Shown: positions 2,792 through 49,770 of the stretch, in pieces | How the letters are laid out: each line of letters starts with the position of its first letter | Numbering within the stretch: position 1 is the first letter of the stretch | Assembly: GCA_963847445.1 (NCBI GenBank) | Contig: CAWJZV010000026.1 | Span: forward strand, 1-64,000 | Source of the DNA: an uncultured delta proteobacterium | GTDB lineage: Bacteria > Desulfobacterota > Binatia > UBA9968 | Reading direction: 5' to 3' | Length of the DNA stretch: 64,000 bases | Program-made: the position numbers and the translations under genes | The notes under the pieces: model-generated | Seen by the model: only the letters and a program-made list of their open reading frames with translations | What the model was told of the DNA's origin: nothing | Database searches by the model: none

Positions 2792-2805
2792 ATGCCGGAG
2801 CACCG

Positions 2806-12730: not shown

Positions 12731-12748
12731 CCAACCATGCACGGCATG

Positions 12749-12779
12749 GAGAAGATTTCTCGCCACGCTCGAAATGACA
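12749..12779. repeat. Half copy of the GTCATCCCGAGC/GCTCGAAATGAC palindromic repeat
   Basis: GAGAAGATTTCTCGCCACGCTCGAAATGACA matches the right half of the element at 16885-16944. Confidence 0.6.
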
Positions 12780-12799
12780 ATCGGGAATTGCGAACGCCG

Positions 12800-17903: not shown

Positions 17904-18761
17904 ATGGCTGAATCGTTGGAAAGCTTCAAAAGCTATATCGGTAAGAGCGAAACCGCCGCCGATGTCGTGACGGCATCGACGATGGTGAAGTTCGCGGCAA
18001 CCCTAGGACTAGAGAATCCGCCGCTCGAGAAAGGTTCGGCGATCCCGCCGGGATGGTATGGCGGGTTATTCCCGGCGTCGCACCGGCCCGACAAGATGCG
18101 CACCGACGGACAGGCATCGGGCGGCGGCTTCATGCCGGCGATACCGCTGCCGCGCCGCCGCATCGGCGGCACTCGCGTGGCGTTTCATGAACCCTTACGA
18201 ATCGGTGATGACGTCACGCGCAAGACCGAGATCGCCGATCTTCAGGTCGACGACGGAGCCAGCGGCGCTCAAGTAACGGTCATCGAACGTAACAGTCTGT
18301 CGACCGCGCGCGGCTTATGCGTCGTCGAGGAGCGCGACATGGTCATGTTGAGCGAAGCAAGGGCGGACGCGGCGCCCAAGACTTCGCCCGCCATTCCCAG
18401 CGAAGCGAAATGGAATCAGACTGTCGAACCCAATGCGCCGTTGCTATTCCGCTTCTCGGCGATCCGGTTCAATAGCCATCGCATCCACTACGACCGCGAC
18501 TACGTGACCAAGGTAGAAAAGCTGCCGGGCCTGGTGGTGCAAAGCTCGCTGATCTCGCAGCTGCTGATGGAAATGTGCCGCCGCGAGTTACCGGCCAAGC
18601 GCATGACCAACTTCGACTTCCAAAACCTGCGCTCGGTCTATGATATCGACGGCAAAGTCACACTGTGCGGCAAACCCGGCAATGATGGCCGCGAAGCCAC
18701 ACTGTGGGCGCTGGATGGAAAAGGCAATCTGGCGATGCTAGTGGCGGCGAAGTTCGCCTAG
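17904..18761 (+). CDS. Double-hotdog (FAS1/MaoC-like, HTD2 or mesaconyl-C4-CoA hydratase-like) dehydratase
   Basis: 'MRTDG', 'PLPRRR', 'LLFRFSAIRFNSHRIHYDRDY', 'PGLVVQ'; AAAGGAG RBS. Confidence 0.85.
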   Translation: MAESLESFKSYIGKSETAADVVTASTMVKFAATLGLENPPLEKGSAIPPGWYGGLFPASHRPDKMRTDGQASGGGFMPAIPLPRRRIGGTRVAFHEPLRIGDDVTRKTEIADLQVDDGASGAQVTVIERNSLSTARGLCVVEERDMVMLSEARADAAPKTSPAIPSEAKWNQTVEPNAPLLFRFSAIRFNSHRIHYDRDYVTKVEKLPGLVVQSSLISQLLMEMCRRELPAKRMTNFDFQNLRSVYDIDGKVTLCGKPGNDGREATLWALDGKGNLAMLVAAKFA

Positions 18762-18769
18762 GAATCATC

Positions 18770-19051
18770 TCACCACGAAGAACACGAAGCGCACGAAGTT
18801 CGAAACATTAATTTCCGAAACCTTCGTGTCCTCGTGCCTCCTGCGAAAATACACGTGCAGCGATGATCTGCGCATTCGATAACGACTCTCTGTTCCGTCA
18901 TACCGGCGCAGGCCGGTATCCAATCCCCTCCCGCCCCTGGATGCCGGCCTGCGCCGGCATGACGAGTCTAAGGAATCGAACCCCGGGAGGGGGCTTCCGG
19001 TATTTTCATTATCTGTGGGCGTGCGTAAGATCATGAATCACTTCGTGGTGA
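18770..19051. repeat. Three-layer nested inverted-repeat element
   Basis: Outer TCACCACGAAG/CTTCGTGGTGA; middle GAAAATAC/GTATTTTC; inner 27-bp IR at 18896-18922 and 18938-18964 (25/27 match). Confidence 0.8.
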
Positions 19052-19066: not shown

Positions 19067-19906
19067 CTAATTTACACCCATCGGATGGCGCACCAAGAAG
19101 TCCTGCAGCACTTTCAGCGCGCCATCGCCATCCCAAAACGTCATATGCCTGACGCCGGGCACTAACGCCAACTCAGCGCCCGGAATTAACGGCGCCAGTC
19201 GCCGCGCCGTCGCTGCCGGCGTGCTGCCACGCCGCTCGACGCCGTCGTCCGCGCCGCAAAGAACCAAGGTCGGCACATTGACCTTCGGCGCTTCAGCCAG
19301 GGTATCCCAAGTCAGCCGCGCCAGCTCGTGCATGCGATACTGCTCCACGGTGCTCTGTCCCGACCACAAGGCGCGTGCCAGCTCTGCCGCCTGTTCACGA
19401 TGGCTGCGATAGAATTCCGGATTGTAGGCCATATGATCGTTATCGATATGTTCGAGGATATATTTTTCAAAACCGATCTTGTTGATCTCGTCCAGTGCTT
19501 CCGGCCCCACTTCGCGCATCGTGCCGTCGAGGCGGCGCACTCCGGGTCCAGTGGTAGAAATCGTTAGACTCGCGACCAAGTCCGGCCGCGCGATCGCCAT
19601 CGCCTGAACGATCTGGCCGCCAATGGCGAAGCCTACCAAATGGCAACGTGCGACACCGAGCTGTTGCAGCAACTCGATGCCATCCACGGCGAACTGTTTG
19701 ACCGTGTAGCCGTCCTTCGGCCTTTCGCTTCTGCCTGTGCCGCGGCCATCGTAGATAATCGTGCGAAAGTGTTTGGACAAGGCCGGCACAACCCCGACGT
19801 TCCAAGTCGCACAGGGCCACCAGTTGGGCGGCACCAAGAGAATCGGTTCGCCGCTGCCCTGGGTTTCATAATAAATCTCGACACCGTTAACTTGCATTGT
19901 CGGCAT
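19067..19906 (-). CDS. Alpha/beta-hydrolase-fold protein, paralogue 1, Ala at nucleophile elbow (GFAIG)
   Basis: MPTMQVNGVEIYYETQGSGEP, 'YDGRGTGRS', 'PTLVLCGADD', 'VRHMTFWDG'. Confidence 0.9.
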   Translation of the reverse strand: MPTMQVNGVEIYYETQGSGEPILLVPPNWWPCATWNVGVVPALSKHFRTIIYDGRGTGRSERPKDGYTVKQFAVDGIELLQQLGVARCHLVGFAIGGQIVQAMAIARPDLVASLTISTTGPGVRRLDGTMREVGPEALDEINKIGFEKYILEHIDNDHMAYNPEFYRSHREQAAELARALWSGQSTVEQYRMHELARLTWDTLAEAPKVNVPTLVLCGADDGVERRGSTPAATARRLAPLIPGAELALVPGVRHMTFWDGDGALKVLQDFLVRHPMGVN

Positions 19907-19939
19907 GCAGCTCCGCAGACTTCTTGTCTGGCGAACACT

Positions 19940-19974
19940 TTGGAACGGCTTGAACGATTGGAACGGTTGGAACC
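19940..19974. repeat. 9-bp tandem repeat (TTGGAACGG-like)
   Basis: ttggaacgg cttgaacga ttggaacgg ttggaacc. Confidence 0.7.
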
Positions 19975-19983
19975 GACTCAAAA

Positions 19984-21012
19984 TCATCCCGCCGTCAGGC
20001 CGAAGGTCTGTTGAAACAGTTTGATCGACTCCGCCATCCCTTCGTTTTCCAAATCCTGGACGATTTTTTTGAAGCCTTTGTTCAGCCGCGGCGGATCGGC
20101 GTCGACATCGCTGCGCGACGGAATGCGGCTCAGCTCGCGCAGCTTCAGCTGCGCCGGTTTGGAAAAAAGAAAATCGATGAACAGCTTGGCCGCCGCCGGA
20201 TGGGGCGGGCGCGCGGCGATGCTTACCGTGTTGATGATCACCACCACCGGCTCCAAAGGCACCCAATCGATCGGCGCGCCTTGATTGACGAAGCTCTGCG
20301 CATGGGGACCATAGCCGATGGTCAGCGGCGCTTCGCCCGCCGCCACCAGCGAGATGCGGCCGCGCGCGCCGCGCTGAAAGATCTGATCCTGCGCCGCCAG
20401 GCGGCGGAAATAGGCCAGCCCTTTGTCCTTGCCCCAGGCTTTGAGCAGACCGTCGAACCATTCGAAATTGTCGGTGTCGTTGATGATCTGCCGTCCCTTC
20501 CACATCGGCTTGAGCAGGTCGTCGTAGGTTTTCGGCACGTCATCCGGCTTGACGTTGCGCTTGTTGTAGGCGAGCACGAAGGTATTTTGAAACGTCGAGC
20601 CCCAGTAACCCGCTTTGTCACGTAAATCCGCCGGCAGATGTTTGAACTCCGGCGATTCGTAACGGCCAAGAATTTCACGCTTCTTGAGCAAGGTGAGGCC
20701 GCCTCGGCTCGCCGTTCCTTGCAACACGTCGGCGGCGTAAGTGCGCGCCGCGTATTCGCTGACCACCCGGTTGACCAGCGCCCCCGCCCCCGAGCGCAGC
20801 AGATCGACTTTGATGAACGGATACTGCCTCTCGAACAGATCGATGAGCTGCTTGCTCTCCGGAATCGACACGGTCGTGTACCAGACCACGCGCCCTTCTT
20901 TTTTCGCTTGGGCGACCAGATCGGGATTGGCAACCTGGGCAAAGGCAAGCGGCCCGTTTAGCAACAATGCCAATAATGCAATGATCGCGAGTAAGTGAAA
21001 TTTCATCTTCAT
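19984..21012 (-). CDS. ABC transporter substrate-binding protein (Fe3+/thiamine/polyamine-type)
   Basis: Signal peptide, 'AKKEGRVVWYT', 'PKTYDDLLKPMWKG', 'PPHPAAAKLFIDFLFS'. Confidence 0.88.
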   Translation of the reverse strand: MKMKFHLLAIIALLALLLNGPLAFAQVANPDLVAQAKKEGRVVWYTTVSIPESKQLIDLFERQYPFIKVDLLRSGAGALVNRVVSEYAARTYAADVLQGTASRGGLTLLKKREILGRYESPEFKHLPADLRDKAGYWGSTFQNTFVLAYNKRNVKPDDVPKTYDDLLKPMWKGRQIINDTDNFEWFDGLLKAWGKDKGLAYFRRLAAQDQIFQRGARGRISLVAAGEAPLTIGYGPHAQSFVNQGAPIDWVPLEPVVVIINTVSIAARPPHPAAAKLFIDFLFSKPAQLKLRELSRIPSRSDVDADPPRLNKGFKKIVQDLENEGMAESIKLFQQTFGLTAG

Positions 21013-21016
21013 CGTC

Positions 21017-21987
21017 TCACCCAGTCCGGGACATTTTTACTTCAACAATCTCTGTCGCCGCGCTAACTACCGTCTCCAGCGACGGCAAGAACGGCCGCTC
21101 GTCCCAATAGGGCAAATACTGATCGGCGCCGACCAGCAAGCGCGGCGCTATCGCCAATTTGCCCGCCGGCAAGCGATCGAGAGCGCAGCGCACATAGGGC
21201 GCGTAGCCGGCCCATTCGGGTTCGTCCTGGACGATCAACACGCGGCCGGTTTTGCTCGCGGACTTGAGCACCGTGTCGGTATCCAGCGGCTTGATAAATC
21301 CCAAACTGACCACTTCGACCGCGTCGCCTGTCCCTGCTTCGCCAACTCATCGGCGGCGTCTTCAGCCAGCGCCGCTGCGCGGCCGGCGCCGACGATCGTC
21401 AAGCGCTCGCCGGCGCGAGTAATCGTCGCGCTGGCGCCGGGGTTAGTCTCGGCAAGCTCACCGGCGCGCAGATGAATCGAGCGGTCTTCGAAAAACAAGG
21501 TCGGCGTCGGCCGCGTCAGCGCGTCGCGAAAACTCCAGTAGGCCTCGCTCGGCGAGCCCGGCATGGCGATATTCAGATCCGGCACGTTGTAGAACCACGA
21601 CACGCCGACCTCGTTGCCTTCCGGACCATGACCGCGAAACCGCGCGATCGGCAAACGAATGATGATCGGACAATTCAACCGGCCATTGGTGAGATAGTGC
21701 AGCTTCGCCGCGCTCTGGACGATCGCCATGTGGCAAACCGAAGCGATATCGGCGTAGGCGATCATGACGACGACCTTCATCCCTTTCATCGCCGCGCCCA
21801 CCGCCATGCCGACCATGGCGCTCTCGCTGATCGAACAATCGCGCACGCGATCGAGTCCGTAGGTATCGGCTAACGGTTTCAAAGCATGGGCCGCGAGATT
21901 TTGTCCTATGACAATCAAGCGCGGTTCGTCGCGCATCGAATCTTGCAACGCTTTGCCGACCGCGTCGCGGTAATTTATTGTGGACAT
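21017..21987 (-). CDS. 2-oxoacid/acetoin dehydrogenase E1-beta-like ThDP enzyme subunit, divergent; frameshift near 21320
   Basis: 'RVRDCSISESAMVGMAVGAAMKG', 'WFYNVPDL', 'IKPLD..TVLKSASKTGRVLIV'. Confidence 0.88.
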
Positions 21988-22061
21988 GCTTCGCTCTCTG
22001 CTTTGAATCCGTAAGGAGTAAGGTTAGGGTCAGGAGTTTCCGGATTCGGACGCCTCACCCT

Positions 22062-23010
22062 TTACCCTTCACCCCTAACGGAATTGAAAGCCGCTTCAAC
22101 CCGCTGCTCTTCATCCCGCTGGAGCCGTTCAAGATCATCGCTGCGTCGCCATCCCGTTCCTGATCAGCCAATCGCCCAAACGTTTCAAGGGATCATGCTT
22201 GGCCGCCTCGGCTAAATCGTTTTCGATGCCCGAGCGCACTTCGCCGAAGTGCGAGCTATACAGGCCGACGCGAAAGGTCAGGCAATCGAGAAACACCGGT
22301 TGTCCACTCAGCGCCGTCGCCCGCGCCCAGCGCGCCGCTTGATAAACATCCATGGCATCGTTGCCGTCGACTTGGCGCGACGCCAGACCGAACGGCTCGG
22401 CGTAAGGAATCAGCGAGCGCTGCCGGCGCACCTTGGGCCAGGGCGTCGCCATCTCCCAGCCGTTGTTCTCGCAGACCAGAATCAGCGGCAGATGCCACGC
22501 GCCGGCGATATGCATGGTCTCGTGCAGGTCGCCGGAACCCAAGGTCCCGTCGCCGAAGAACGCCACGCTGACGTTGCTGGCGCCATCGGTTTGATTGGCC
22601 AGCGCCACCCCCGCCGCCATGGCCAGATGGCCGCCGATCATCGTCGATCCCGGCATCACACCGCGCTCTGGCCATGACGCATGATGCGGCGCATCGCGCG
22701 AATCGCCGACGGCCGAAGGCGTGTGCAAAAACTCGCGAAGCTGTTCTTCGATGCCGATACCCATGCCGATCATCGCGCCGCGAGTGCGAAACGACGGCAG
22801 CACATCGTCGCCCTTCTCCAACGCCAGGCAAGTGCCGATGGCGATCGCTTCCTGCCCCTTACTGGGAAAGGTTTGCGCCGAGTGCTTCTTCTCATGCTCC
22901 CAGCGCACCAGCGCTTCTTCGAAGACCCGCGTGGTCAGCATTTTTAGATAGAGTCGCCACTCGATACGATTGGCGTGCTCGGTGTTTGCCGTAACAGATA
23001 AATCAGTCAT
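22062..23010 (-). CDS. E1-alpha-like ThDP-dependent enzyme subunit, divergent; frameshift near 22140
   Basis: 'GQEAIAIG', ThDP motif 'FFGDG...CENNGW', 'VDGND', 'HDPL'; rebuilt end ...AAFNSVRGEG*. Confidence 0.88.
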
Positions 23011-23035
23011 CTTGAATCTCCTCATTCGAGTTGCT

Positions 23036-23100
23036 TCCTCCTCTCCCTCTGGAAGAGGACAGAGGTGAGGGGCCAAGGGCGACCGCCGGTCGCCCCTACA
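23036..23100. repeat. Two adjacent palindromic repeats: CCCTCTCCC/GAGGG type and GTAG-REP
   Basis: TCCTCCTCTCCCTCTGGAAGAGGACAGAGGTGAGGGG followed by AGGGCGACCGCCGGTCGCCCCTACA. Confidence 0.75.
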
Positions 23101-23125
23101 ATAATTCCGAAATACATCGAGTACC

Positions 23126-24221
23126 TCACGCCGGAAAGACGATGCACGACTCCGCGGCCACTGAAAAACTCACCGTCGTACCGACGCTGGGGATCCTCGC
23201 TGGATGGGCGCGCAGACGCAACCGCGCTGCACCGCTGCGCAAAATCACATCCGCTGAGTTGCCGAGAAAAGTCACCCGCTCGACCCGGGCCGAACCGTGA
23301 TTAGGCAAGCCGTCAATTCCATTGGCATCCAACAGCTCGATACTTTCCGGGCGGAAAAACAGCTCCGCCGCCATGCCCGGCTGCCATTCAACACTGCGCC
23401 GCGCGGCGAATCTGCCGACCGGGGTATCCAATAACATTTCATCCCAAGCGCCATTTCCCGGCAGCTCGACTTGGCCGGCGATAAAATTCGCCGTGCCGAG
23501 AAAATCGGCGGTGATTCGATGTGCCGGTCGAAGATACAGCTCCGTAGGCGCGCCCACTTCCAGGAGCATGCCTTCATGCATCAGACCGATGCGATCCGAC
23601 AACGCCAGCGCTTCTTCCTGATCGTGGGTCACGTACACGGTGGTGATGCCGAAGGACTCTTGCAGCGACTTCAACTCGAAGCGCATCTGCTCGCGCAGCT
23701 TGGCGTCGAGGTTGCTGAGCGGCTCGTCGAGCAGCAGCACCTGCGGTTGCGCCACCAACGCGCGCGCCAGTGCCACGCGCTGCTGTTGCCCGCCGCTCAG
23801 GTTTGGCGCCAGCCGATCCGCCAGAGTCCCGAGACTCAATCGGTCAAGAATCCGCCCGACGCGCTCGCCGATCTCAGTCGCGGTTCGCTGTCTTTGGCCA
23901 GCGGGTAGGCGACATTTTGAAATACCGTCATATGCGGCCAGATCGCGTAGGATTGAAACACCATGCCGATGTTGCGCCGCTCCGGTGGAATAAATGTGCC
24001 GGCGGCGGCGCGAAAACCGCCTGATCGTCGATTAAAATCTCTCCGGCCAACGGCTGTTCCAGTCCGGCGATGCAGCGCAGCGTCGTCGTCTTGCCGCAGC
24101 CGCTCGGACCGAGCAGCGTAAACAACTCGCCCTTGCCAACTTCGAAGGATACGCCGCGCAACGCGCGGACTTCGCCCCTCGCGCCGGCAAACGACTTTTG
24201 CAGATCTATTACGCTAATCAC
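23126..24221 (-). CDS. ABC transporter ATP-binding protein (FbpC/PotA-like with TOBE domain), frameshifted
   Basis: [45 protein letters not shown]. Confidence 0.92.
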
Positions 24222-24376
24222 GAATCGATCCTGTTCGCAGATAATGTGATCGTGTGCCGTGCGACGTGATCTTGCTCGCCGTATCGAACAGATCCACGAA
24301 CGCGGCCAGGACCACGCTTCGCCACTGAGATCGTTTCGGGCACTGTGAAATCAAAATACCGGGCAACTTTCTAGAG

Positions 24377-26153
24377 TCAGGGCTGCGCCGCAAGTCGCGC
24401 AAACAGCTGGCCGCCGAGCAGCAAGATGGCGGAAAGCAAAATCAAGATCACCCCCAAGACTGCGGCATCCGTGGTGCGGCCGTTTTGCCACATGCTCCAA
24501 ATCATCGTCGAGACGACCACCGTCTCCGGATTGTACAGCATCAGAGCCATCGATAACTCCTGCATCGCGTGCACCGCCACCCAGAAAAACACATTGATCA
24601 TAGCCGGCGCCAAGAGCGGCAGCGGTGATCCTGCGCAGCGTGCGCGTCCACGGCGCCCGGCTCATTTGCGACGCCTCTTCCAACTCGCCATGCACCTGCA
24701 TCAGCGCCGAGGTCATCGTGCGTGAGCTGTACGCAAGGTAGCGGGTCGTCATCGCCAGTGCGATGATCCATAGCGTGCCGTAAATCGGAATGGGAAAGCG
24801 CACGTAGACGAAGATAAATGCCAGGCCGATGACGATGCTCGGCACGCACTGCGGCAAAAACGATACCGTGGCGAGATAATGCGACAGTCCGTCCGCCGCG
24901 CGGCTGCGCCGGACGACAAACCAGCTGATCATTACGGCGAGCAAGATCGTCGCCGCGGACGTCACCAGCGCGAGCACCAGAGTATTCCAGAGCGCGCGCA
25001 TGACTGTGCTTTCCTGCCAAATTTTGACGTAGCCATCGAAAGAGACTCGCGCCAGCGAATCCGCCGACGGCACCGCGTAGAAACGGCTGGATGCTGGTCC
25101 AGATCAGCATCAAAAAGGGCAGCACCACGGCGAGCGCCACGTAGAGTAGGCAGAAGCGCGCTGGCCGGCGCCGTCCAGGCGCCGAGATTGACTTGCCGCG
25201 GCCGGTATCCCTTGCCGGTGATCGTCGCGAATCTTTCCTGGTGCGCGGTCAAACGCTGATACGCCCACATGAGCAACAGCGCCACAAACAACACCAGCGC
25301 TCCCAAGGCCGAAGCCAGTCCGTAATCCGGCAAGCCGACTTCCGAGTGGGTCGCCCAGTAGATCGCCGTGCTGAGCACGCGAATGCGCGCGGTGAAACCG
25401 AGCAACCCGGGAATATCGAAGGATTCGATGACGACGATGATGTAATAGATCAACATGGCGAGCAGCGCCGGCCGCATGATCGGTAGGGTGATGCGCATGG
25501 TCGTTTGCGCGACGCCGCGCCCTGCCATGGCGCTCTGTTCTTCCAGCGACGGGTCCATCGCGCGAAACGAAGCCGCGATCATCAGATAAGCCGACGGCAC
25601 CAACCGCAAGCCTTGAACAAAGCACATGCCGTAGAGCGTATAAATATCGAACGGGCCGAAGTCCCCCGACAAACCGAAAACGCTGCGCAAGACCACATTG
25701 ATGATGCCGATCCTTGGATCGAGCAGCTGAATCCAGGCGATCGCCGAGAGCAGCGAAGGAATCGTCATCGGCACGAGAATGAGCGCGGCGATCCACCGGC
25801 GCGCCGGGATCGCGGTCCGTTCCAAAAGCCAAGCCATTAGGACCGCCAGCGGCAAGCCGACTGCCAGCGACCCGGCGGTGAATAAAAACGTATTCAGAAA
25901 GATCGGCAAAGTCGAAGGACTGGTGAGAACTGTGGTGTAATTCGCCAGCGTCATGACCCGTCGCCTCGAAGGGCAACTTATCTTCCGTGCTTTTGACGCT
26001 GGCGTAGAGCAGCATCACGAGCGGAACGAGCACAAGATAAGAAACCACGGCAATGGTGCAGCCAAAGGCAACGGAACGAACCGATAATTTCCGCGTCCAT
26101 GACCGAGCCCCGGTCTGCGCGCTGGGACCGAATGTGGTTGGCGTTACACTCAT
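24377..26153 (-). CDS. ABC transporter permease, two fused domains (FbpB-like), frameshifted
   Basis: Two EAA loops 'MDPSLEEQSAMAG' and 'VHGELEEASQMS'; 'RFATITGKGYRP'. Confidence 0.9.
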
Positions 26154-26243
26154 ATCAAGTTGAGATCGGTTCGGGCAGCTCGATCAATTCATTATCGGGG
26201 CGTCTCATGCAGTGCCGAGGTACCCCGAGTCTCCGGTCCTTAT

Positions 26244-27305
26244 TCATCGCAGTGCGCCGAGCATTTTTCCCAATTCGCGCTGGATCTCGAGAATCCCCGC
26301 GAAGTTATTTTCGGTTTCCAAGATGATCGCAGGCTGAGTGGTTTTGATTCTCGCGGCGACATTGCCGATCGCGTTCTTGCCTACCTCGATCGCCTGGCCG
26401 GTGTTGGTATATCTGACCGTTTGCCCCTCGGTGCTTCCCAGCCAACCGGCAAAAAAGCGCGCAGCATTGGGGTGCGGCGCGGTCTTGAGCACTCCCACTG
26501 CAGAATTGAGCACCGGTAGCGGCGAGACGGCAACCCAATCGACGGCAGCGCCTTGTTTTTTCAAGCGCTCGATGGTGTAGGCATAGGTACCGACGGCGAT
26601 GGAAACCTGGCCCCCGGCCAAGGCATTGGCCACGGTAGTGCCGCCTTGAACGATCAGGGGCTGTTGCTGCGAAAGTATTCTCTTAATCAATTCAGTCGCT
26701 TTGCCCTTGCCCCATTGCGTGCCGAGCATGGCAAAAGGAACTAATCTCGCCTCCATGATTATTTTTCTGCCTTTCCACTTCGGGTCGGCGAGGTCTTCCC
26801 AATTCTTCGGCGCCTCCTGCGCGCTCACCAGCTTGGTGTTATAAGCGATCGGCAACGTTAGATTATAAGCGCCGACGAACCGTTGGTTGGCATAAACCGC
26901 GTCGAGGCCGAAATCCTTTTCCCACCCAGGGTAGCTGGCCAACATGTCGCGATCGATCAATGGCCGCAACGCGCGCAGCGAACCGGACTGAATGATATCT
27001 ACGGCCGCCGGTTTGCCGGCCTGACTCTCAGCGATGATTCTTTGCACCAGGGGTTCAGGGATACTCTCGAAGTGCTCGATTTTGATGCCCGGATACTGCT
27101 TGTTCATGGCCTCGTGCGCGCGCTGATAGATAATTGCGTCCGTCGGTCCCCAAATCACGACCGTGCCTTCTTTCTTAGCGGCATTGTATAGCTGCATCAC
27201 CGCGTCGTTGCCGCCTTTGCTTTTATCTTGGGCGTAGCCGGTGTTGCCAATAACCAACAGTCATGCAATAGCAATGGCACTCACAGTGAATAGTCGAAGT
27301 TCCAT
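26244..27305 (-). CDS. ABC transporter substrate-binding protein (Fe3+-type), frameshift in signal peptide
   Basis: 'AAKKEGTVVIW', 'APKNWEDLADPKWKG', 'APHPNAARFFAGWL'. Confidence 0.88.
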
Positions 27306-27374
27306 AGGTCGAATTCAATCTCCTGAGCGCGCTGAATTCAAACAAGCATCAATAGCGTTAAACGGCTCCGACGT

Positions 27375-28217
27375 TCAAAGTTTCTCGATGGGATGGCGCA
27401 GCAAAAATTCCTGCAACGCGATCAGCGCCCCATCGCCGTCCCAAAAGGTCATATGCTTGACGTTGGGCACCAACGCCAACTCGCAGCCGGGAACCAACTC
27501 GCCGAGCTTGCGCGCCGTGCCCACCGGCGTGCTGCCGCCGCGATTCACATCGTCGCCGGCGCCGCACAGGATCAACGTCGGCACCTTGACCCTGGGCGCG
27601 TTGCCCAAGGTATCCCAGGTGCGCCGCGCGTCGAAGTGATAGCGATGTTGTTCGGGACTGGTTTGGCGTTTCCACAGCGCATCGGACAAACGCCTTGACC
27701 ACATCTTGATGCTCGGCGAAAAACTTGCCGTCGAACGCCATATGGGTGTTCTCGATATGGCCACGGATAAACTGCTCGAAGCCATGCTCGCGAATCTCTT
27801 CTTCGTCGGTGTTGCGTACCACCCGGGAGCCCGCCATCGGTCGCTTTCGCCCCGGCACCGGCGGCGGCGATGGTCAGCGTTGCGACCAGGTCCGGGCGCT
27901 GGATCGCCAATGCCTGGGCGATCTGGCCGCCCAGAGCGAATCCTGCGGCGTGGCAACGCGCTATTTTTAGATGCTCCAACAGCCCGGCGCAGTCCTTGGC
28001 AAACTGTTCGATGGTGTAGCCATGATCCGGCTTGCTCGAATGGCCGGTGCCACGGCAGTCGAAGATGATCGTGCGAAACTTCTTGGATAGAAACGGCACC
28101 ACGCCGACGTTCCAAGTATCGCAAGGCCACCATGACGGCGGACAGAGCAGCACCGCATCGCCGGCGCCTTGGCTTTCGTAAGTAAATCGTTACATCGCCT
28201 AAATCCGCCGTCGGCAT
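27375..28217 (-). CDS. Alpha/beta-hydrolase-fold protein, paralogue 2 (GFALG), frameshifted
   Basis: 'PPSWWPCDTWNVGVVP', 'FDCRGTGHS', 'PTLILCGAGDD', 'VKHMTFWDG'. Confidence 0.88.
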   Translation of the reverse strand: MPTADLGDVTIYLRKPRRRRCGAALSAVMVALRYLERRRGAVSIQEVSHDHLRLPWHRPFEQAGSWLHHRTVCQGLRRAVGASKNSALPRRRIRSGRPDRPGIGDPAPGPGRNADHRRRRCRGESDRWRAPGWYATPTKKRFASMASSSLSVAISRTPIWRSTASFSPSIKMWSRRLSDALWKRQTSPEQHRYHFDARRTWDTLGNAPRVKVPTLILCGAGDDVNRGGSTPVGTARKLGELVPGCELALVPNVKHMTFWDGDGALIALQEFLLRHPIEKL

Positions 28218-28284
28218 TTTATACCTCATACCGATTCGTTGGGGTCGGGCCATGACCTACCGCTACAACAAACCTAAAAAGAGT

Positions 28285-28576
28285 ACAATTACAATTTCAG
28301 TCCCTTTTGAGTCCGGCGTGGTCGGAAGAAGGTGCTTGAGCTTCGGAAAAAGTGAGGCGGCGACGAGCACGAAAGAGGTCGATGGCGATGTATGTGAGCC
28401 GGGTATTAAGAGGGGACCAGCACGGAGAGTTTGGTGAGGCATTGGGCTTTTAGAGACGAGCACCTCGATGAGGTAAGCGGGTTTACGGATGAAACGGCGG
28501 GTAGACGCGGACAAACGATTAGCGCGCCACATGTGGCACATCAATCGGTTGTTACTAAAAAGTCATAAGCTATAAG
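28285..28576 (+). pseudogene. Decayed C-terminal HTH (DnaA-C-like) fragment, probably from a REP-associated tyrosine transposase (RAYT)
   Basis: Interrupted translation 'RSMAMYVSRVLRGDQHGEFGEALGF..GLRMKRRVDADKRLARHMWHINRLLLKSHKL*'; purine-rich, unlike neighbours; recognised by eye only. Confidence 0.5.
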
Positions 28577-28581
28577 CGCAA

Positions 28582-28610
28582 TTGACTACCCGCAGGTTCG
28601 TAGGTATAAA
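28582..28610 (+). promoter_or_regulatory. Near-consensus sigma70 promoter with no downstream CDS
   Basis: TTGACT-17 bp-TATAAA; second TATAAT followed by GGCGCCAC at 28687-28700. Confidence 0.6.
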
Positions 28611-28872
28611 TCCCGTCAGTGGAAAAGGGTGTTTAAATTTCCATCCATCCAACGGTAGGGCTGCGCCAAAGACTGACGTCGCGTTTTATAATGGCGCCAC
28701 GGTTCAACACCCTGTTGAGGCGACGGAATCGCGAGGGTTTGTCCGGTGAGTAATTTCAGTGAAGAGTCGACCGCCGTTCCGCCGCTCCTCCTCCGAATTT
28801 CCTCCGAGTTTGCGTTTGCACCGCAATACCTCAGAGTTTGCGAAGCTTGCGGAAATTTTCGAATTTTCGGGA

Positions 28873-28926
28873 CCGGTGTCTGTAAGTAGTCGCGCTCAAT
28901 AAGACAACAGTTCCGGTGTCCGTAAG
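28873..28926. repeat. 14-bp direct repeat CCGGTGTCYGTAAG, 40-bp period
   Basis: Copies at 28873-28886 and 28913-28926. Confidence 0.6.
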
Positions 28927-28955
28927 AAATCGTTCGGAATCAGATAAATTCATTT

Positions 28956-29103
28956 CACCACGAAGAACACAAAGAGCGCGAAGTCTGGAGAAAGAATTTT
29001 CCGAAACCTTCGTGCATTCGTTTTCATCTCACCACGAAGGACAATGCGAAGCGCACGAAGTTCGGAGAAATACTTTTCCGAACCCTGCGTGTCCTTCGTG
29101 GTA
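28956..29103. repeat. Two tandem copies of the CACCACGAAG...CTTCGTGGT palindromic element
   Basis: TCACCACGAAGAACACAAAG...TTTCCGAAACCTTCGTG then TCACCACGAAGG...TCCTTCGTGGT. Confidence 0.8.
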
Positions 29104-29172
29104 AAAACTCTTTCCCATTTGGTTGCGGCTGTGCCGCGCTAGGTTCTTTGCGGCCAATCTTCCGAATCCGCC

Positions 29173-29199
29173 TGTAGGGGCGACCGGCCGGTCGCCCCT
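29173..29199 (+). repeat. GTAG-type REP palindrome
   Basis: TGTAGGGGCGACCGGCCGGTCGCCCCT. Confidence 0.85.
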
Positions 29200-29248
29200 C
29201 CCTGTTTGTAGCGCGACATCGACTTCAATCTCAAACGAAATGTTATCG

Positions 29249-30087
29249 CTATGCCCCGATCGGATGACGCAACAAGAACTCTTCCAGCGCAGTCAGCCCG
29301 CCGCTGCCGTCCCAAAACGTCATATGCTTGGTGTCGGGAATCAAGAACAGCTCAGCCCCAGGCGTCAGCTCGGCGACACGCTGCGCCGTGCCCACCGGCG
29401 TGCTGCCGCGCCGGGCGACATCATCGTCGGCGCCGCAAAGAATCAGCGTCGGCACTGTGACTTCACCGGCCTTCCCCAGGGTATCCCAAGTAAGCCGCGC
29501 ATCTTCGTGACGGCGAAACATTTCCACCGTGCTCTGCCCCGACCATACCGCGTCGGCCAATGCAGCGACCACTTCGCCATGTTCGCGGTAGAATTGCGGA
29601 TTGAAAGCCATGCTGTCGTTCTCGATGTAGTTGCGAATGTAGCGCTCGAAACCGATGGCGCGAATTTCTCGTTCCGTATCCGGCGATAAACTTCGTTGTC
29701 CACCGGCAAGGGTCTTCACTCCCGGCACCCGAAGCAGCGATCGTTAAGGTAGCAACTACATCGGGCCGCTCGATCGCCAGCGCCTGCATGATCTGCCCGC
29801 CCAGAGCGAAGCCGACGGCATGGCAGCGCGATATGCCGAGATGCGCCAGCAAGCCGAGGCAATCCTGCGCGAACTGCGTCACCGTGTAACCGTCGCGTCG
29901 GCTGGCTACTTCGTCCAGTGCCGCGACAGTCGAACGTGATGGTCTTGAAACGCTTCGATAGAAACGGCACGACGCCGACGTTCCAAGTGGCCGACGGCCA
30001 CCAGGAGGCCGGCGCGAGCAGCACCGGCTCGCCGCCGCCCTGCGTTTCGTAATAGAGTTCCAGCTCAGCCAATTTTGCGATAGCCAT
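29249..30087 (-). CDS. Alpha/beta-hydrolase-fold protein, paralogue 3 (GFALG), frameshifted
   Basis: 'PASWWPSATWNVGVVP', 'FDCRGTGRS', 'PTLILCGADDD', 'TKHMTFWDG'. Confidence 0.88.
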
Positions 30088-30111
30088 ACTCCCGTCCCAT
30101 CGACGTGCTAA

Positions 30112-30185
30112 GGTTTAGTAGCCTGATAGTTCGCTGTCAACCGATTATGCGCCGCTTGACAGTCCCTCCTCGCCTCTGCCACTGT
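30112..30185. promoter_or_regulatory. Back-to-back divergent sigma70-like promoters (TGTCAA-N15-TTGACA)
   Basis: Minus strand TTGACA(30140-30135)-17 bp-TAAACC; plus strand TTGACA(30156-30161) with weak -10. Confidence 0.55.
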
Positions 30186-30217
30186 TCGCTTACAAAATCT
30201 TTAGCAGGGGAACGCTT

Positions 30218-30883
30218 ATGTCCAACCCATTTGTCGAATCTGTCCTCAAGGAAATCATCCACCCAGGCGTGGAGCAGTTGATGAGCACGCGCTTCTTCAC
30301 CGAACTGCGCGCCGGCAAGCTTTCCAAAAAGCGCATTCAGGGTTTCGCCGTGCAGCATTATCTGTCCAACCATGTGATCAACAAAGGCTTGGCCTTCTCG
30401 ATGGTGCGCAACGCCAACAACCAGGCGATGTACGAGCAGTTCATCGAGCTGTTCACCGAAGAGCAGTCCCATCCCGGTCTCATGAGACGTTTCGGTCTGG
30501 CCATGGGGCTTACCGACGCCGACTTCGACGACGGCATCATGATCTTCGAATGCGTCGCCCACACCGGCGCGATCGTCCGCGGCATGCTCGTCGGCGCGCC
30601 GGCGGAAACCCGGGTCGGCGCTCTGGTCAACGAAACCATGGTGCAGCGCTACTCCGACGAATTCGACGCGGCGTTGGAAAAACATTACGGCCTCGACAGC
30701 CGGGCGCGCACGTTCTTCGCCGTCCACGGCAAAGTCGACATCGAACATACCGCCATGGCGGCCGACACCGTGGCAAAGTTCGCCATCACCGACCGCGACA
30801 AGGAAATGGTCCGGGCCGCGGCGAAAAATATGGTGCGCTTCAAGATCAACAAGTTCGACGGCATTTACGACACCTTCGCATAA
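30218..30883 (+). CDS. Heme-oxygenase-like diiron enzyme (TenA/PqqC/CADD superfamily)
   Basis: 'ELRAGKLSK', 'EEQSHPGL', 'VNET', 'FFAVHGKVDIEH': E..H / E / H..D..H ligand pattern. Confidence 0.82.
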   Translation: MSNPFVESVLKEIIHPGVEQLMSTRFFTELRAGKLSKKRIQGFAVQHYLSNHVINKGLAFSMVRNANNQAMYEQFIELFTEEQSHPGLMRRFGLAMGLTDADFDDGIMIFECVAHTGAIVRGMLVGAPAETRVGALVNETMVQRYSDEFDAALEKHYGLDSRARTFFAVHGKVDIEHTAMAADTVAKFAITDRDKEMVRAAAKNMVRFKINKFDGIYDTFA

Positions 30884-30943
30884 ATAGGTTTCGAGTTTCG
30901 GGTCCAGAGTTTCGAGTTTCCGTCCCAACCCATACGGATAGGA

Positions 30944-31945
30944 GTGCGACCCATGAACTTGACGAAAGAAAGTTTCGCCGCGCTGTGCGCGCTATTATGC
31001 TTCGGCCTAAGCGTGAACGATGCTCTTCACGCCGCCGAGAAATCCGCCAAGCTCACGAGCTTCCGCATCGCCTATGTCTCGCGCAGCACCCTCGACATGC
31101 CGTTTATCATCGCCCGCGACCGCGGCTTCTTCCGCGAAGAGGGGTTGGAACCGGAGTTTATTTTCATGAAGGCGATTCAAACCGTCCAGGCGATGCTCGC
31201 CGGCGGCGTCGACTTCGGCACCGCCACCGGCACCGCGATCAGCGCGGCGGTCAATGGCGCCGATGTCCGGGTCGTCTTCGCGCTATCGGATAAGCCGTCC
31301 TTCGATCTGATTGCCGCGCCCGCCATCACCAGCGTGGCTCAACTGCGCGGCAAAAAAATCGGCATCTCGGCGCCCGGATCGCTGACGGAAATCATCGCGC
31401 GGCAGATTTTCATCGCCAACAAAATCCCGCTGGATCAAGTCACCATGCTACCGCTCGGCACCAGCGACATCACCTGGGTTGCTTTGAAAGCCGGCACCAT
31501 CGACGCCACCATGCTGCAAATACCGCAGAATTTTATCGCCGTCGACGAAGGCTACCGCAAGATCGCTGCCGGCGCCGATGTCTATCGCGCCGTCCAGGGC
31601 GGCCTGACGACGACCAAGTCAGTGATCAATGACAAACCGGAACTGGTGACCAAAGTCATCCGCGCCACGCAAAAAGCCCTCCGGCTGTTCCGCGCCGATA
31701 AAAAGTACGCCACCGACTTTATCCGCGGCCCGTTCCTTGATATGGGCAAAGACCGCGATAAGTACGCCGAGCGCGTCTACGAGGCCGCGCTGGGATACTT
31801 GTCGACCACCGGCACCGTCGACGACAAACTCCAGCGCGAAATGATCGCCACCGCCGCCCAGCGCACCAAGCTCGCCCAACCGCCGCCACCGGAGCGGGTG
31901 TTCGATTTCAGCTTTGCGCAAAAGGTCGGGGAAACGATCAAGTAG
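30944..31945 (+). CDS. ABC substrate-binding protein (SsuA/NMT1-THI5-like)
   Basis: 'IARDRGFFREEGLE', 'QLRGKKIGIS', 'ALKAGTIDA'. Confidence 0.88.
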   Translation: MRPMNLTKESFAALCALLCFGLSVNDALHAAEKSAKLTSFRIAYVSRSTLDMPFIIARDRGFFREEGLEPEFIFMKAIQTVQAMLAGGVDFGTATGTAISAAVNGADVRVVFALSDKPSFDLIAAPAITSVAQLRGKKIGISAPGSLTEIIARQIFIANKIPLDQVTMLPLGTSDITWVALKAGTIDATMLQIPQNFIAVDEGYRKIAAGADVYRAVQGGLTTTKSVINDKPELVTKVIRATQKALRLFRADKKYATDFIRGPFLDMGKDRDKYAERVYEAALGYLSTTGTVDDKLQREMIATAAQRTKLAQPPPPERVFDFSFAQKVGETIK

Positions 31946-31954
31946 CTATCTGAC

Positions 31955-32023
31955 GTTGAACCTTGAACGTTTGAACCTTGAACGAACAAACTCGTTCAAC
32001 GGTTCAAGGTTCAAAAGTTCAAG
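31955..32023. repeat. 7/8-bp tandem repeat TTGAACC with inverted GGTTCAA arm
   Basis: gttgaaccttgaacgtttgaaccttgaacg...gttcaacggttcaaggttcaaaagttcaagg. Confidence 0.8.
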
Positions 32024-32041
32024 GTAACTCCAGGAGGTTAA

Positions 32042-33193
32042 ATGAAATACAGCACCGAGAGAATATTGACCACCCACGCCGGCGCCTTGCCGCTGCCGGC
32101 GGATTTAAAAGAATTGCACAACGCCCGCACGGCGGGGACGCCTGTCGATGAGCAGGTTTATAGCAAACGGGTCAGCGGCGCGGTCGCCGACATCGTCAAG
32201 AAACAAATCGCCTGCGGCCTCGATATCATCAACGACGGCGAACAGGGCAAGTCCAACTTCTCACGCTATGCCCGCGATCGATTGGGCGGCTTCATCGAGC
32301 GCGAAGTTAAAGCCAGCGACCATACCTCGACGATTTACGCCAGGGATTTGACCGAGTTCAGCGATTACTTTAGCGCGCGCGCCTACCATCGCGGCGACAA
32401 CGTCAAGAGGGTGTTCTGTAACGCGCCGCTGAAATACACCGGCCATGAGTCGTTGAAAGCCGAAATCGCCGACTTCAAAGCCGGCCTGCAAGGTCAGAAA
32501 TACGCAGAAGCCTTTCTTCCCGCCGTTGCCCCCGGCACCATCGAGCACTGGATGAAGAACGATTACTACCCTAACGACGAGGCCTATCTTGTCGCCATCG
32601 CCGATGCCATGCACGAAGAATACAAAGCCATCGCCGACGCCGGCTTCTTGCTGCAAATCGACGATCCCGATTTACCCGACGGTTGGCAGTTCATGTCGCA
32701 GATGACCGTGCCGGAATATCGCAAGTACGCCGAGCTGCGCGTCGACGCGCTCAACCACGGACTGCGCGACATTCCGCCCGACCGCGTGCGCTTTCACACC
32801 TGCTGGGGCAGCTACCACGGCCCGCACAAGTACGACATCCCGCTGCGCGACATCATCGACATCATCTTGAAGGTGAACGCCAATACCATCTCGATCGAAG
32901 CCGCCAACCCGCGCCACGAACATGAATGGCGCGTCTGGGAAGAAGTCAAACTCCCCGCCGGCAAAGTGCTGGTCCCCGGCGTCGTCGGCCACGCCACCGA
33001 TATCGTCGAGCACCCGCAAGCGATCGCCGATCGCTTGGTCCGCTACGCCAAGATCGTCGGCAGAGAAAACGTCATGGCCGGCACCGACTGCGGCTTCGGC
33101 CCGCGAGTCGGCAGCCCGCAAATCTGCTGGGCGAAGTTCGAAGCCATGGCGGAAGGCGCAAGGCTGGCGACCAAGGAGTTGTGGGGCAAGTAA
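32042..33193 (+). CDS. Cobalamin-independent methionine synthase II family (MetE C-terminal / epoxyalkane:CoM transferase-like) Zn enzyme
   Basis: 'ILTTHAGALP', 'NDGEQGK', Zn ligands 'FHTCWGS', 'SIEAAN', 'GTDCGFG'. Confidence 0.92.
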   Translation: MKYSTERILTTHAGALPLPADLKELHNARTAGTPVDEQVYSKRVSGAVADIVKKQIACGLDIINDGEQGKSNFSRYARDRLGGFIEREVKASDHTSTIYARDLTEFSDYFSARAYHRGDNVKRVFCNAPLKYTGHESLKAEIADFKAGLQGQKYAEAFLPAVAPGTIEHWMKNDYYPNDEAYLVAIADAMHEEYKAIADAGFLLQIDDPDLPDGWQFMSQMTVPEYRKYAELRVDALNHGLRDIPPDRVRFHTCWGSYHGPHKYDIPLRDIIDIILKVNANTISIEAANPRHEHEWRVWEEVKLPAGKVLVPGVVGHATDIVEHPQAIADRLVRYAKIVGRENVMAGTDCGFGPRVGSPQICWAKFEAMAEGARLATKELWGK

Positions 33194-33339: not shown

Positions 33340-34367
33340 ATGCGTCGAGGTTTAATTTGTCAGCTTGATCGCCATCGCGCTTTCTAATCGTCACCGCTGG
33401 CACCCAGGCCCAGCAACTACCCAAGTCGGTCGCCATCGGCTCCAACCCGCCGGGCTCGCTGTTTTACGCCTTGGCGAGCGGCTTGGCGAAAGTCGTCAGT
33501 GACGCGGCGGCGATTCAGGCGCAAGTCCAGCCGTTCGCCGGCACCAGCACGTTCGTGCCGCTGTTCGACACCGGCGAGCTCGACTTCGGCGTGGTCAACG
33601 CCGTCGACATGGGCATGGTCTACCGCGGCGCGAACTTCAAAGTCGGCGGCAGAAATCCGTTTCCCCATGTCGCCAGCTCCCGGCTGCTCATGCGCGGCTC
33701 GCCGCTGCGCAGCAGCTTTATCGTCAGGAAAGATTCGCCGATCAAGACCTTGGCTGACGTCAAAGGCAAGCGCGTCACCGGCGAGTACCCGGCGCAGTTG
33801 GCGGTTTGGTACAACATGTTCGGCGCGCTCTCGAACGCCGGGCTCTCTTGGAACGATGTCAAAGTCGTGCCCGTGCCGGCGGTCAACGAAGGCGTCGACG
33901 CGCTCGTTCAAGGTCGCGCCGATGTCACCACCCACGCCATGGGCTCGGCGAAACTAAAGGAAGCTGACGCCGCGGTGGGAATCCGCTTTTTATCCCTCGA
34001 TTGTTCCAAGCTCGGCGAAGAGCGGATCAAGAAAGCGATCCCGGGATATTATTTATCGACCGTCAAAGGCGGCTCGTCGTCTGGAATCCTCGAAGACGTC
34101 TGCGCCTACACCTACGATATTTATCTCGTCGGTCATGCCAAACTGCCCGACGCCGTCGTGCGCAGCGTGCTGCAAGCGATCTGGGTCAATATCGACAAGC
34201 TGCCGCAATTCCACCCAGGCTTCGTCGAGTGGACCAAAGCCCGCGCCGTCGATGCCGAGGTGACGATTCCCTATCATCCGGCCGCGGTGCGCTATTTCAA
34301 AGACGCCGGAGCCTGGCCGGCAAAGATGGACGAGGCTCAGAAAAAACTTTTGGCGTGGAAACCGTAG
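33340..34367 (+). CDS. TAXI family TRAP solute receptor 1 (frameshift in signal peptide)
   Basis: 'IGSNPPGSLFY', 'VRKDSPIKTLADVKGKRV', 'IPYHPAAVRYFKD'. Confidence 0.9.
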
Positions 34368-34434
34368 CGAAGACTGGCTGGAGTATCGGAGTAATGGAGT
34401 TTGGCAGTAGCGGGATCAGAACGGAGAGAAGTCT

Positions 34435-35479: not shown

Positions 35480-35549
35480 GAGCGTAAAGAAGAAAGAATG
35501 AATTGGAGTGATGGAGTGCTGGAGTACAGGTTCGGACAGGAGAGATGTT

Positions 35550-48452: not shown

Positions 48453-48518
48453 ACCACCCTCCAGACAAACCGGGATCTGCTTGCGTACTTACTACGGGGT
48501 CGTCATAATGCACAAGCA

Positions 48519-49674: not shown

Positions 49675-49770
49675 AGAACGAACGCAATCCTAGACGCCTT
49701 TAGAATTCGCCCTTTCGCGACCGCCGCGCACGCCGTTGGAAACAACCGCCAACGATCCCATCATATAAAC

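Follow-up and report, generated by a model that had tools for sequence, protein, structure and literature searches.

A conserved, lineage-specific divergent locus of Binatia encoding alpha/beta-fold proteins without a serine nucleophile, an E1-type thiamine diphosphate enzyme and two transport systems

Gene content of the locus

We analysed a stretch of 64,000 nucleotides (hereafter the window) from an uncultured delta proteobacterium of the Binatia (GenBank assembly GCA_963847445.1, contig CAWJZV010000026.1, positions 1 to 64,000), in which two divergent gene runs lie back to back. Judged by sequence, these genes are a conserved, lineage-specific, uncharacterised set of divergent members of known superfamilies: a leftward arm (module L) with an ATP-binding cassette (ABC) importer, an E1-type thiamine diphosphate (ThDP) enzyme and three alpha/beta-fold proteins that lack the catalytic serine, and a rightward arm (module R) with a heme-oxygenase-fold protein, a MetE-like zinc enzyme, receptors and a tripartite ATP-independent periplasmic (TRAP) permease. 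Domain content was assigned with Pfam on open reading frames (ORFs) of the window and with NCBIfam on intact orthologues from the relative G007, and both matched the gene list of an earlier reading of this DNA (the original prediction).

Module L lies on the minus strand and is transcribed in the order hyd3, hyd2, SBP2, permease, ATPase, E1alpha, E1beta, SBP1, hyd1. Its hyd genes encode the serine-less paralogues: hyd3 (29249..30087) and hyd2 (27375..28217), both with the elbow GFALGG, are each in three pieces in the source assembly (insertions at 29719 and 29898, and at 27828 and 28180), and hyd1 (19067..19909), with GFAIGG, is intact. The importer comprises SBP2 (26244..27310; Pfam), a second receptor whose translation has an in-frame stop within the signal peptide; a fused double permease with two BPD_transp_1 domains (24351..26153), which occupies at least four frames here (insertions at 24391, 24623, 25080 and 25957) and is an intact 594-residue protein in G007; an ABC ATPase with a TOBE_2 domain (23126..24230; Pfam and tblastn), spread over three frames (insertions at 23877 and 23889, deletion at 24011); and SBP1 (19984..21012), an intact FbpA/PhnS2-like periplasmic receptor (Pfam SBP_bac_6/1/8). 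Between ATPase and SBP1 lie the E1alpha-like ThDP subunit (22135..23010; E1_dh, 167 bits; motif GDG..NN), which loses about 27 C-terminal residues through a 1-bp insertion at 22144 (the tblastn match spans residues 7-280 of 307), and the E1beta-like subunit (21017..21987; Transket_pyr plus partial Transketolase_C), split into two frames by a 1-bp deletion near 21327 and matched by tblastn as two pieces.

Module R, on the plus strand, begins with three intact genes, for a CADD-like heme-oxygenase-fold protein (30218..30883), an NMT1/SsuA-like receptor (30944..31945; PF09084; TIGR01728 at 84.9 bits against a cut-off of 163.5) and a single-barrel MetE-like zinc enzyme (32042..33193). The original prediction recognised these three but closed the run at 33193, beyond which genes for two to three TAXI-type TRAP receptors follow, with a broken one in the middle (33381..36587, plus strand; Pfam NMT1_3 and tblastn). 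The run ends with a fused TRAP permease of the DctM type (36757..38700, plus strand; PF06808, E 7.9e-92), a gene that likewise trails MetE and TAXI at locus L070. NCBIfam equivalog cut-offs were reached by none of the 13 cluster proteins, whose matches all fall far below the curated values; the downstream TAXI receptor is the sole protein past a (subfamily) cut-off (TIGR02122, 120.8 against 84.35 bits for the G007 orthologue). An Rfam search over 17000-39000 at E <= 1 gave no match, and no ThDP or other riboswitch was seen in that interval.

Conservation and linkage across Binatia

A DNA search of 30 relatives recovered the complete stretch, with its gene order unchanged, in G004 (89% identity), G014, G007 and G018 (range 73-89%), and the 31/31 genomes with some DNA match include the unpublished G005. 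At the protein level the order hyd1-SBP1-E1beta-E1alpha-ATPase-permease-SBP2-hyd2-hyd3, divergent from diiron-NMT1-MetE, was mapped in other genera of the family as well (G112, G116, G118 and G083), and all 14 of 14 cluster genes are open in G007. The co-occurrence that the original prediction had expected elsewhere was therefore found, with homologues recurring in the same order in the same genus and in at least three further genera.

Within the order, an E1alpha orthologue (>=74% identity) is present in 21 of 121 genomes, all of a single family and with one match per genome. In 15 of these genomes a hyd gene is found no more than 5 kb away, and in the other six the orthologue is at a contig end or on a contig shorter than 9 kb; the E1 pair adjoins a serine-less fold gene wherever the assemblies allow the test. 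The hyd family itself is matched in 91/121 genomes (a tally that includes the unpublished G085 and G088) and the diiron family in 101/121, with several paralogues each (including the unpublished G005, G085 and G101). A motif-seeded scan of species-representative genomes yielded 72 hyd loci, nearly all titled Binatia or 'delta proteobacterium' metagenome-assembled genomes; homologues of hyd1 carry the source label 'Candidatus Binatia bacterium'. Counting companions at >=60% identity, ABC genes accompany hyd at 20/72 loci and E1 at 18/72, with 14 of the 18 E1-bearing loci also holding ABC genes; the diiron gene is found at 18/72, the MetE-like gene at 12/72, and E1 and diiron jointly, within +/-10 kb, at seven.

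The gene convergent with hyd1 is a constant neighbour of the cluster. It encodes a MaoC/FAS1_DH-like double hot-dog hydratase (17904..18761, plus strand; PF13452) that, among solved structures, is closest to itaconyl-CoA hydratase 8khg (E 9e-39 across 251 residues), and it accompanies 18 of the 72 hyd loci at >=60% identity. At one genus-g3 locus (L016:422-1303, genome G045), a modification gene of the MbnB/TglH/ChrH type for ribosomally synthesised and post-translationally modified peptides, followed by ABC exporter and HlyD genes, is encoded 8 kb upstream of the single hyd.

Alpha/beta-fold proteins without a serine nucleophile

The hyd proteins belong to the alpha/beta-hydrolase fold (Abhydrolase_1/6, 73.5 bits for hyd1 against a gathering score of 25.8), and the absence of a serine nucleophile that the original prediction had noticed holds throughout: alanine occupies the elbow (GFA[IL]GG) in hyd1, hyd2, hyd3 and all family members aligned. 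Alignment to the esterase Est1 (6eb3; E 9e-37) places this alanine at the nucleophilic serine and keeps histidine and aspartate at the other triad positions; across 111 aligned sequences H252 never varies and >=90% retain D219. The HG oxyanion motif that follows strand beta3 is replaced by P-[PA]-x-W-W-P. At 57-68% identity among paralogues, 12 members, hyd1, hyd2 and hyd3 included, have 91 invariant positions; among these are WWP, the elbow GFA.G with RCH ahead of it, the RRGSTP loop that follows the acid, and HMTFWDG.

When a library is clustered at 50% identity, the family falls into a single full-length cluster (535 bits). Among 99 aligned full-length representatives, the neighbouring clusters P0130, P0133, P0141, P0142 and P0160 are also serine-less, with WWP or WWT; a sixth cluster, P0224, shares the elbow GFALGG but lacks WWP, and relatives farther away show the usual GHSMGG. 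This distribution indicates that the nucleophile was lost secondarily and that the altered site was then strongly conserved. An AlphaFold2 model built on 111 sequences shows an ordinary alpha/beta fold (predicted local distance difference test score 96.7; template-modelling score (TM) 0.84 to 6eb3); a model from 12 sequences scored 53.7 and was set aside. A Foldseek search of the PDB yielded only ordinary esterases, lactonases and perhydrolases and no serine-less structural twin, and the ESM Atlas returned only 'alpha/beta hydrolase' clusters, mostly from Binatota.

Source annotations name these proteins PcaD or BioH, names that fail the curated cut-offs and do not fit the serine-to-alanine change; the best NCBIfam match, TIGR02427, scores 101.5, 112.4 and 89.3 bits for the three paralogues against a cut-off of 255.85. 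With the serine lost, the HG motif replaced, an extra loop present and scores this low, the hyd proteins are neither PcaD/BioH equivalogs nor serine hydrolases. We infer that they may carry out non-hydrolytic acid/base chemistry on an anionic substrate.

An E1 pair without a lipoyl partner

The E1 subunits contain the membership domains E1_dh, Transket_pyr and Transketolase_C, and the ThDP motif GDG..NN is present in all 120 of 120 E1alpha orthologues. Their equivalog scores stay below cut-off (199.4 against 411.35 for TIGR03181; 148.4 against 321 for NF006667). In pairwise alignments to the Geobacillus and Thermus E1s, the histidine of the alpha loop aligns with tyrosine and that of the beta HS motif with glycine, at positions that we take to be alphaHis271 and betaHis128 of the Geobacillus enzyme.

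The original prediction had also found no E2, E3 or lipoyl gene in the window, and this was borne out: a scan of 61 ORFs found no Biotin_lipoyl, 2-oxoacid_dh or Pyr_redox domain, and the intact G007 cluster leaves no room for such a gene. Lipoyl-domain matches number six genome-wide, none of them on contig C26. The genome holds six E1alpha/beta pairs, the others including C8:44487-48242, C45:124397-126110, C4:86325-87740 and C7:250921-252645, and a lipoyl gene lies near just one of them, the C7 pair (C7:248947). Orphan E1 pairs are thus common in the source genome, and the lack of a nearby E2 is not special to this locus.

Importers and rightward enzymes

The best curated matches of the ABC system are to the putative 2-aminoethylphosphonate (AEP) set PhnS2/T2/U2, all below cut-off (SBP1 against TIGR03261, 87.7/392.75 bits; then 314.5/457.7 and 194.9/593.25), and the nearest solved structure to SBP1 is 7f6s (E 5e-24). 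We considered phosphonate uptake on the strength of this likeness and set it aside, the conserved cluster having no PhnW/X/Y/A-type or C-P lyase gene.

In module R, the heme-oxygenase-fold protein matches PF14518 at 56.9 bits (cut-off 28.9), and its segments EEQSH, NET and HGKVDIEH align with the ligand positions of CADD in 9pj4 and 1rcw, keeping all six putative metal ligands, as we presume these residues to be. Five paralogues occur in the genome. The MetE-like protein, a single barrel of 383 residues and one of 7-8 paralogues, belongs to PF01717; its HTC, SIEAAN and DCG segments align with the zinc sites (HxC, E, C) of 3rpd and 1u1h.

Thiamine salvage, suggested by the ThiB-like and THI5/NMT1-like receptors, a TenA-like fold and the ThDP enzyme, was rejected as a coincidence of names: the heme-oxygenase-fold protein has CADD-like metal ligands and no TenA profile. 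The NMT1/SsuA-like receptor has 317 tblastn matches in the genome, a very large expansion that also counts against thiamine salvage. At least eight NMT1/SsuA-like genes lie in the last 17 kb of the window (47437-63974), beside two family-III CoA-transferases, an acyl-CoA dehydrogenase and an enoyl-CoA hydratase.

Intergenic hexamers and repeats

The two arms diverge from a 130-bp region (30088..30217) that contains TGTCAA-N15-TTGACA. The back-to-back TTGACA hexamers from which the original prediction started both arms are present, at 30135-30140 on the minus strand and 30156-30161 on the plus strand, 15 nt apart, but no full promoter of the sigma-70 type accompanies them: a scan of 28000-30400 gave no complete site (-35 and -10 at 16-18 nt), only -35-like hexamers. 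TTGACA alone is not enriched in the window (20 found against 23.3 expected). The arrangement TGTCAA-N10-20-TTGACA, by comparison, occurs ten times genome-wide against about 1.6 expected, and two of the ten copies lie directly upstream of paralogous E1alpha and alpha/beta-fold genes (C8:48240 and C14:53382 among the sites). The pair is kept in the four closest genomes (G004, G014 and G007 among those compared), and three genomes farther away (G018, G112 and G118) keep the rightward hexamer. This pattern is compatible with divergent promoters or with an operator. Among public sequencing runs, none of RNA was listed as containing the stretch.

A non-coding insert of about 980 bp (28218..29198), missing from G004, splits the leftward run between hyd2 and hyd3. 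It carries tandem hairpins resembling repetitive extragenic palindromes (REPs) at 28949-29021 and 29023-29099, a further repeat at 29094-29170 and a GC-rich palindrome at 29176-29199. One close-relative metagenome contig (run X3) joins 28230 to 28735 and skips 504 bases (28231-28734), so part of the insert is polymorphic among strains.

The hairpin, a palindrome of about 75 nt (CACGAAG...CTTCGTG), has up to ~100 blastn matches in the genome, folds with z-scores down to -6.1 and has no Rfam match. Besides the tandem copies in the insert, one more stands between the hydratase gene and hyd1 (18765..18836; found by blastn against the genome; fold z -3.0). Metagenome-contig depth in four runs rises from about 10 to 147-493 over 28982-29288. 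The element looks like a family of these Binatia related to REPs or to miniature inverted-repeat transposable elements.

Interrupted reading frames in module L

Module L, listed in the original prediction as a leftward run, does not read through in the source assembly. Alignment with G004, G014 and G007 identified 13 window-unique coding indels of 1 bp between 21327 and 29898, 11 of them insertions, which break six of the nine leftward genes (E1beta, the E1alpha tail, ATPase, permease, hyd2 and hyd3); SBP2, with its in-frame stop, is a seventh. None falls in hyd1, SBP1 (19067-21012) or the three rightward genes (30218-33193). Indels unique to G007 are intergenic only, and G004 has frameshifts of its own in the NMT1-like and MetE-like genes. 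Elsewhere in the window, split genes include those for AcrB-like (2441-5945), PepN-like (8563-11114, four pieces), major facilitator superfamily (11211-12516) and MacB-like (12666-15858) proteins.

To place this breakage in context we used ORF cover, the share of DNA in well-scoring ORFs, as a crude measure. It is 0.64-0.83 on 47/48 contigs of the source genome (0.50 on C43; 0.77 in the window) and 0.66-0.79 in the few-contig relatives G018, G083, G097 and G118, and it reaches 0.86-0.94 in G004, G007, G014, G056, G112 and G116 and at 16 loci of closed-looking genus-g3 genomes. Marker completeness is 60-94% in most few-contig relatives against 98-99% in most many-contig ones, with G014, G015, G093 and G056 as exceptions to the trend, and the few-contig relatives mostly carry frameshifts of their own in other genes. 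In metagenome contigs from three public runs, which share at most 0.33 of sampled words and so represent close relatives rather than the source strain, the extra base at 27830, the site covered by this check, is missing. Given so heavy a load of 1-bp indels, any residue-level, 'missing motif' or 'truncated gene' reading of the source genome needs a check in relatives.

Discussion

Collectively, our results identify a genuine gene cluster. We give an even chance to the reading that it is vertically inherited, specific to one Binatia family and made up of two linked modules, separable from each other, each of which pairs uptake with enzymes for small polar compounds. Gene content, conserved order, the residue changes and the lack of nearby lipoyl, E2 or E3 genes outline a model whose catalytic steps, substrate class and coupling between modules we infer. 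In module L, the genes of an ABC importer of the FbpA/PhnS2 type, which has two receptors, enclose those of an E1alpha/beta-like ThDP enzyme mid-operon, and they are flanked by one to three copies of a cytoplasmic alpha/beta-fold protein that lacks the serine and HG motif, keeps histidine and aspartate and bears the invariant RRGSTP loop. The ThDP enzyme may cleave or decarboxylate what the importer brings in, or a 2-oxo or alpha-hydroxyketone compound derived from it, with no transfer to lipoate; the serine-less proteins could then process the products by non-hydrolytic acid/base chemistry, for instance by decarboxylation, isomerisation or a retro-aldol or retro-Claisen-type cleavage, and the itaconyl-CoA-hydratase-like neighbour may act further downstream. 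Module R would combine a CADD-like diiron-type oxygenase and a MetE-like zinc alkyl-transferase with the NMT1-like receptor and the TAXI-TRAP importer. Substrates of both modules would be small and polar, probably anionic or zwitterionic. The chemistry of the original prediction (O2-dependent diiron catalysis, lipoate-independent C-C cleavage, acid/base catalysis) is a hypothesis drawn from residues.

The interruptions of module L are, in our judgement, most likely consensus errors of a long-read assembly. That the arm is instead a truly decaying operon, with real pseudogenes in the source genome, is a lesser but appreciable possibility, and several facts speak for it at the expense of assembly error. 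The frame-breaking indels are locally clustered in this arm, which decay of one operon explains as well, with 13 in 21327-29898 but zero across hyd1, SBP1 and the three rightward genes, which together span 4.9 kb; rpoB and rpoC (C34) and dnaE (C15) are open over ~11.8 kb, where the local rate of 1.5 frameshifts/kb predicts about 17 and none was seen, while a second, dnaE-like copy (C30:221674-224394) lies in at least four frames, unlike the long essential genes checked; and the operon contains a polymorphic 1-kb insert with mobile-looking repeats. Decay in bacteria, however, is deletion-biased and leaves indels of varied length, whereas every indel here is of 1 bp and 11/13 are insertions; similar breakage on 47/48 contigs, together with lowered marker completeness, is not what decay of accessory genes alone would produce; and four of 12 single-base insertions (21049-28180) lie within 10 nt of GATC, a proximity associated with base-calling error and here a weak hint of a systematic one. 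Under assembly error and decay alike, the frames are broken in the source assembly, and the biology of the cluster is therefore read from intact relatives.

Some evidence weighs against the two-module reading. A diiron orthologue of >=65% identity, present in 43 genomes, lies within 3.5 kb of a hyd gene in 23/43 and elsewhere in 20/43, on another contig (among them long contigs of G056, G035, G115 and G121) or in a genome without a hyd match, the unpublished G085 and G101 being among the 20; the modules are apart in several genera, and G090 (genus g13) carries its E1/hyd arm and its diiron gene on different contigs. At 30 of the 72 hyd loci, mostly of genus g3, none of the cluster companions is found, and in that genus a single hyd heads another set (ABC ATPase, two unknowns, M24 peptidase, luciferase-like oxygenase, ornithine cyclodeaminase). 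By these counts the left arm is a tight unit and the right arm, diiron-NMT1-MetE-TAXI-TRAP, a second one, often but not always joined to it, and they do not establish the single system of the original prediction. A joint pathway, in which the two arms take up and break down one substrate under common control from the divergent promoter region between them, is doubtful: the locus has no regulator gene, each arm has its own importer, and the separations just given set a limit to what the divergent hyd3-diiron arrangement in 23/43 genomes, the seven joint loci and the hexamer pair kept in the four closest genomes can say for it. Within module L, textbook catalytic positions of the E1 pair appear changed in the pairwise alignments, in line with the claim of missing canonical histidine motifs, but the conserved family loops TFRxGLYSSHFGE and RGHGPEGNEVG keep a histidine 3-5 residues away (in SSHFGE and RGHGPEGNE), so that a loss of lipoyl chemistry is unproven. 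The solved proteins closest to the receptors are annotated as iron-binding (7f6s, also 2pt1 and 4r72), alongside the pyridoxal phosphate (PLP)-binding protein 6wce, so the importer may not carry an organic substrate at all. An FbpABC-type Fe3+ importer, making the locus one of cofactor supply rather than organic catabolism, would fit these annotations, the architecture of receptor, fused double permease and TOBE ATPase, and the diiron-type enzyme encoded next door; we nevertheless consider it very unlikely, since the best NCBIfam matches, though below cut-off, are to PhnS2/T2/U2, the relative 6wce in the same receptor cluster binds PLP, the Tyr-Tyr pair of FbpA is not evident (the receptors read GYGPH and GTYAY), and two ThDP-enzyme genes lie within the transporter operon. 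Relatives in this receptor cluster bind sugar phosphates, PLP, thiamine or AEP. The serine-less proteins, for their part, might be pseudoenzymes without catalytic activity that bind ligands or serve as scaffolds, perhaps as a sensor or chaperone of the transporter or the E1; alpha/beta-fold receptors and pseudoenzymes such as KAI2/D14, CGI-58 and NDRG are known. Loss of both the nucleophile and the HG motif and the presence of up to three conserved paralogues per locus agree with this. We consider it unlikely, since the catalytic histidine is invariant in 111 sequences, the acid is kept in >=90%, and the 91 invariant positions include charged RRGSTP loop residues, a degree of conservation typical of an active site.

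A more far-reaching reading would make module L an undescribed lipoate-independent ThDP lyase or decarboxylase system in which a Binatia-specific, nucleophile-free fold clade (Ala-His-Asp, WWP as oxyanion substitute, RRGSTP as anion-binding loop) has replaced the E2/E3 half of a 2-oxoacid or acetoin dehydrogenase and handles the fragments from the ThDP enzyme by acid/base chemistry, and which together with module R forms a single new catabolic route, with two importers, for an abundant soil compound; this we think distinctly improbable. Curated models assign the locus to no described pathway, and literature searches at the level of abstracts and listings, on Binatia/Binatota, on gene clusters combining heme-oxygenase-like diiron enzymes, hydrolases and ThDP enzymes, and on serine-less alpha/beta-fold decarboxylases, turned up none either, as the original prediction had supposed. 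Judged by abstract and term search, the metabolism described for Binatia (methylotrophy, alkane degradation and pigments; PMC8262859) does not include this locus; the terms 'pyruvate dehydrogenase', 'methionine synthase', 'TRAP' and 'substrate-binding' do not occur in the main text of that paper.

What the intact relatives supply is a protein set in which a fold clade that cannot be serine hydrolases is encoded with an E1-type ThDP enzyme that has no lipoyl partner, inside a transporter operon. Binatia are widespread uncultured bacteria of soils and sediments. Once worked out, the substrate would extend the catabolic repertoire of an abundant phylum and probably bring a new reaction type to the alpha/beta-fold superfamily.

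Relation to known systems

The closest analogy for module L is the acetoin dehydrogenase system (AcoA/AcoB with AcoC, NF011457), in which a heterodimeric E1 is likewise encoded beside an alpha/beta-fold protein. Within the AcoC model it is the alpha/beta-fold part that the hyd proteins match (positions 116-357 of 372; E 1e-11 to 8e-13), but they score 42-48 bits against its 307-bit cut-off and have neither the lipoyl domain nor the serine nucleophile; an E3 is missing, and the E1 scores are far below the equivalog cut-offs of the acetoin and pyruvate dehydrogenase enzymes. In fold and subfamily the hyd proteins belong with PcaD and Est1 (6eb3; 32-34% identity to Est1, TM 0.84), from which they differ by alanine in GxSxG, PPxWWP in place of HG and the extra invariant RRGSTP loop. 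A precedent for non-hydrolytic decarboxylation by an Ala-His alpha/beta-fold enzyme is methylketone synthase 1 of tomato, which reportedly has alanine at the nucleophile position; it is a plant enzyme with no detectable specific sequence kinship to the hyd proteins.

The hot-dog neighbour recalls itaconate degradation (Ict-Ich-Ccl) in its resemblance to itaconyl-CoA hydratase, but the conserved cluster contains neither a CoA-transferase nor a citramalyl-CoA lyase, and the nearest family-III CoA-transferases are 36 kb off (55028-57769). In module R, the heme-oxygenase-fold protein shares the E..H, E and H..D..H ligand positions of the 4-aminobenzoate synthase CADD/CT610, one of the heme-oxygenase-like diiron or Fe/Mn oxygenases, while matching the solved chains weakly (E 4e-6 to 6e-5) and TIGR04305 at 59.5 of 200 bits. 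The zinc enzyme differs from MetE in lacking the two-barrel architecture of ~750 residues (best NCBIfam score 102.5 against 406 bits) and resembles the single-barrel MetE-like alkyl-transferases of ~380 residues, with PF01717 and HxC/E/C ligands, a group that includes core-MetE, YxjG/YxjH and epoxyalkane:CoM transferase. The importer of module L, finally, shares with FbpABC, PhnS2T2U2 and ThiBPQ its combination of a receptor, a fused permease with 12 transmembrane segments and a TOBE ATPase, and is set apart from them by its two receptors and by the E1alpha/beta pair inside its operon.

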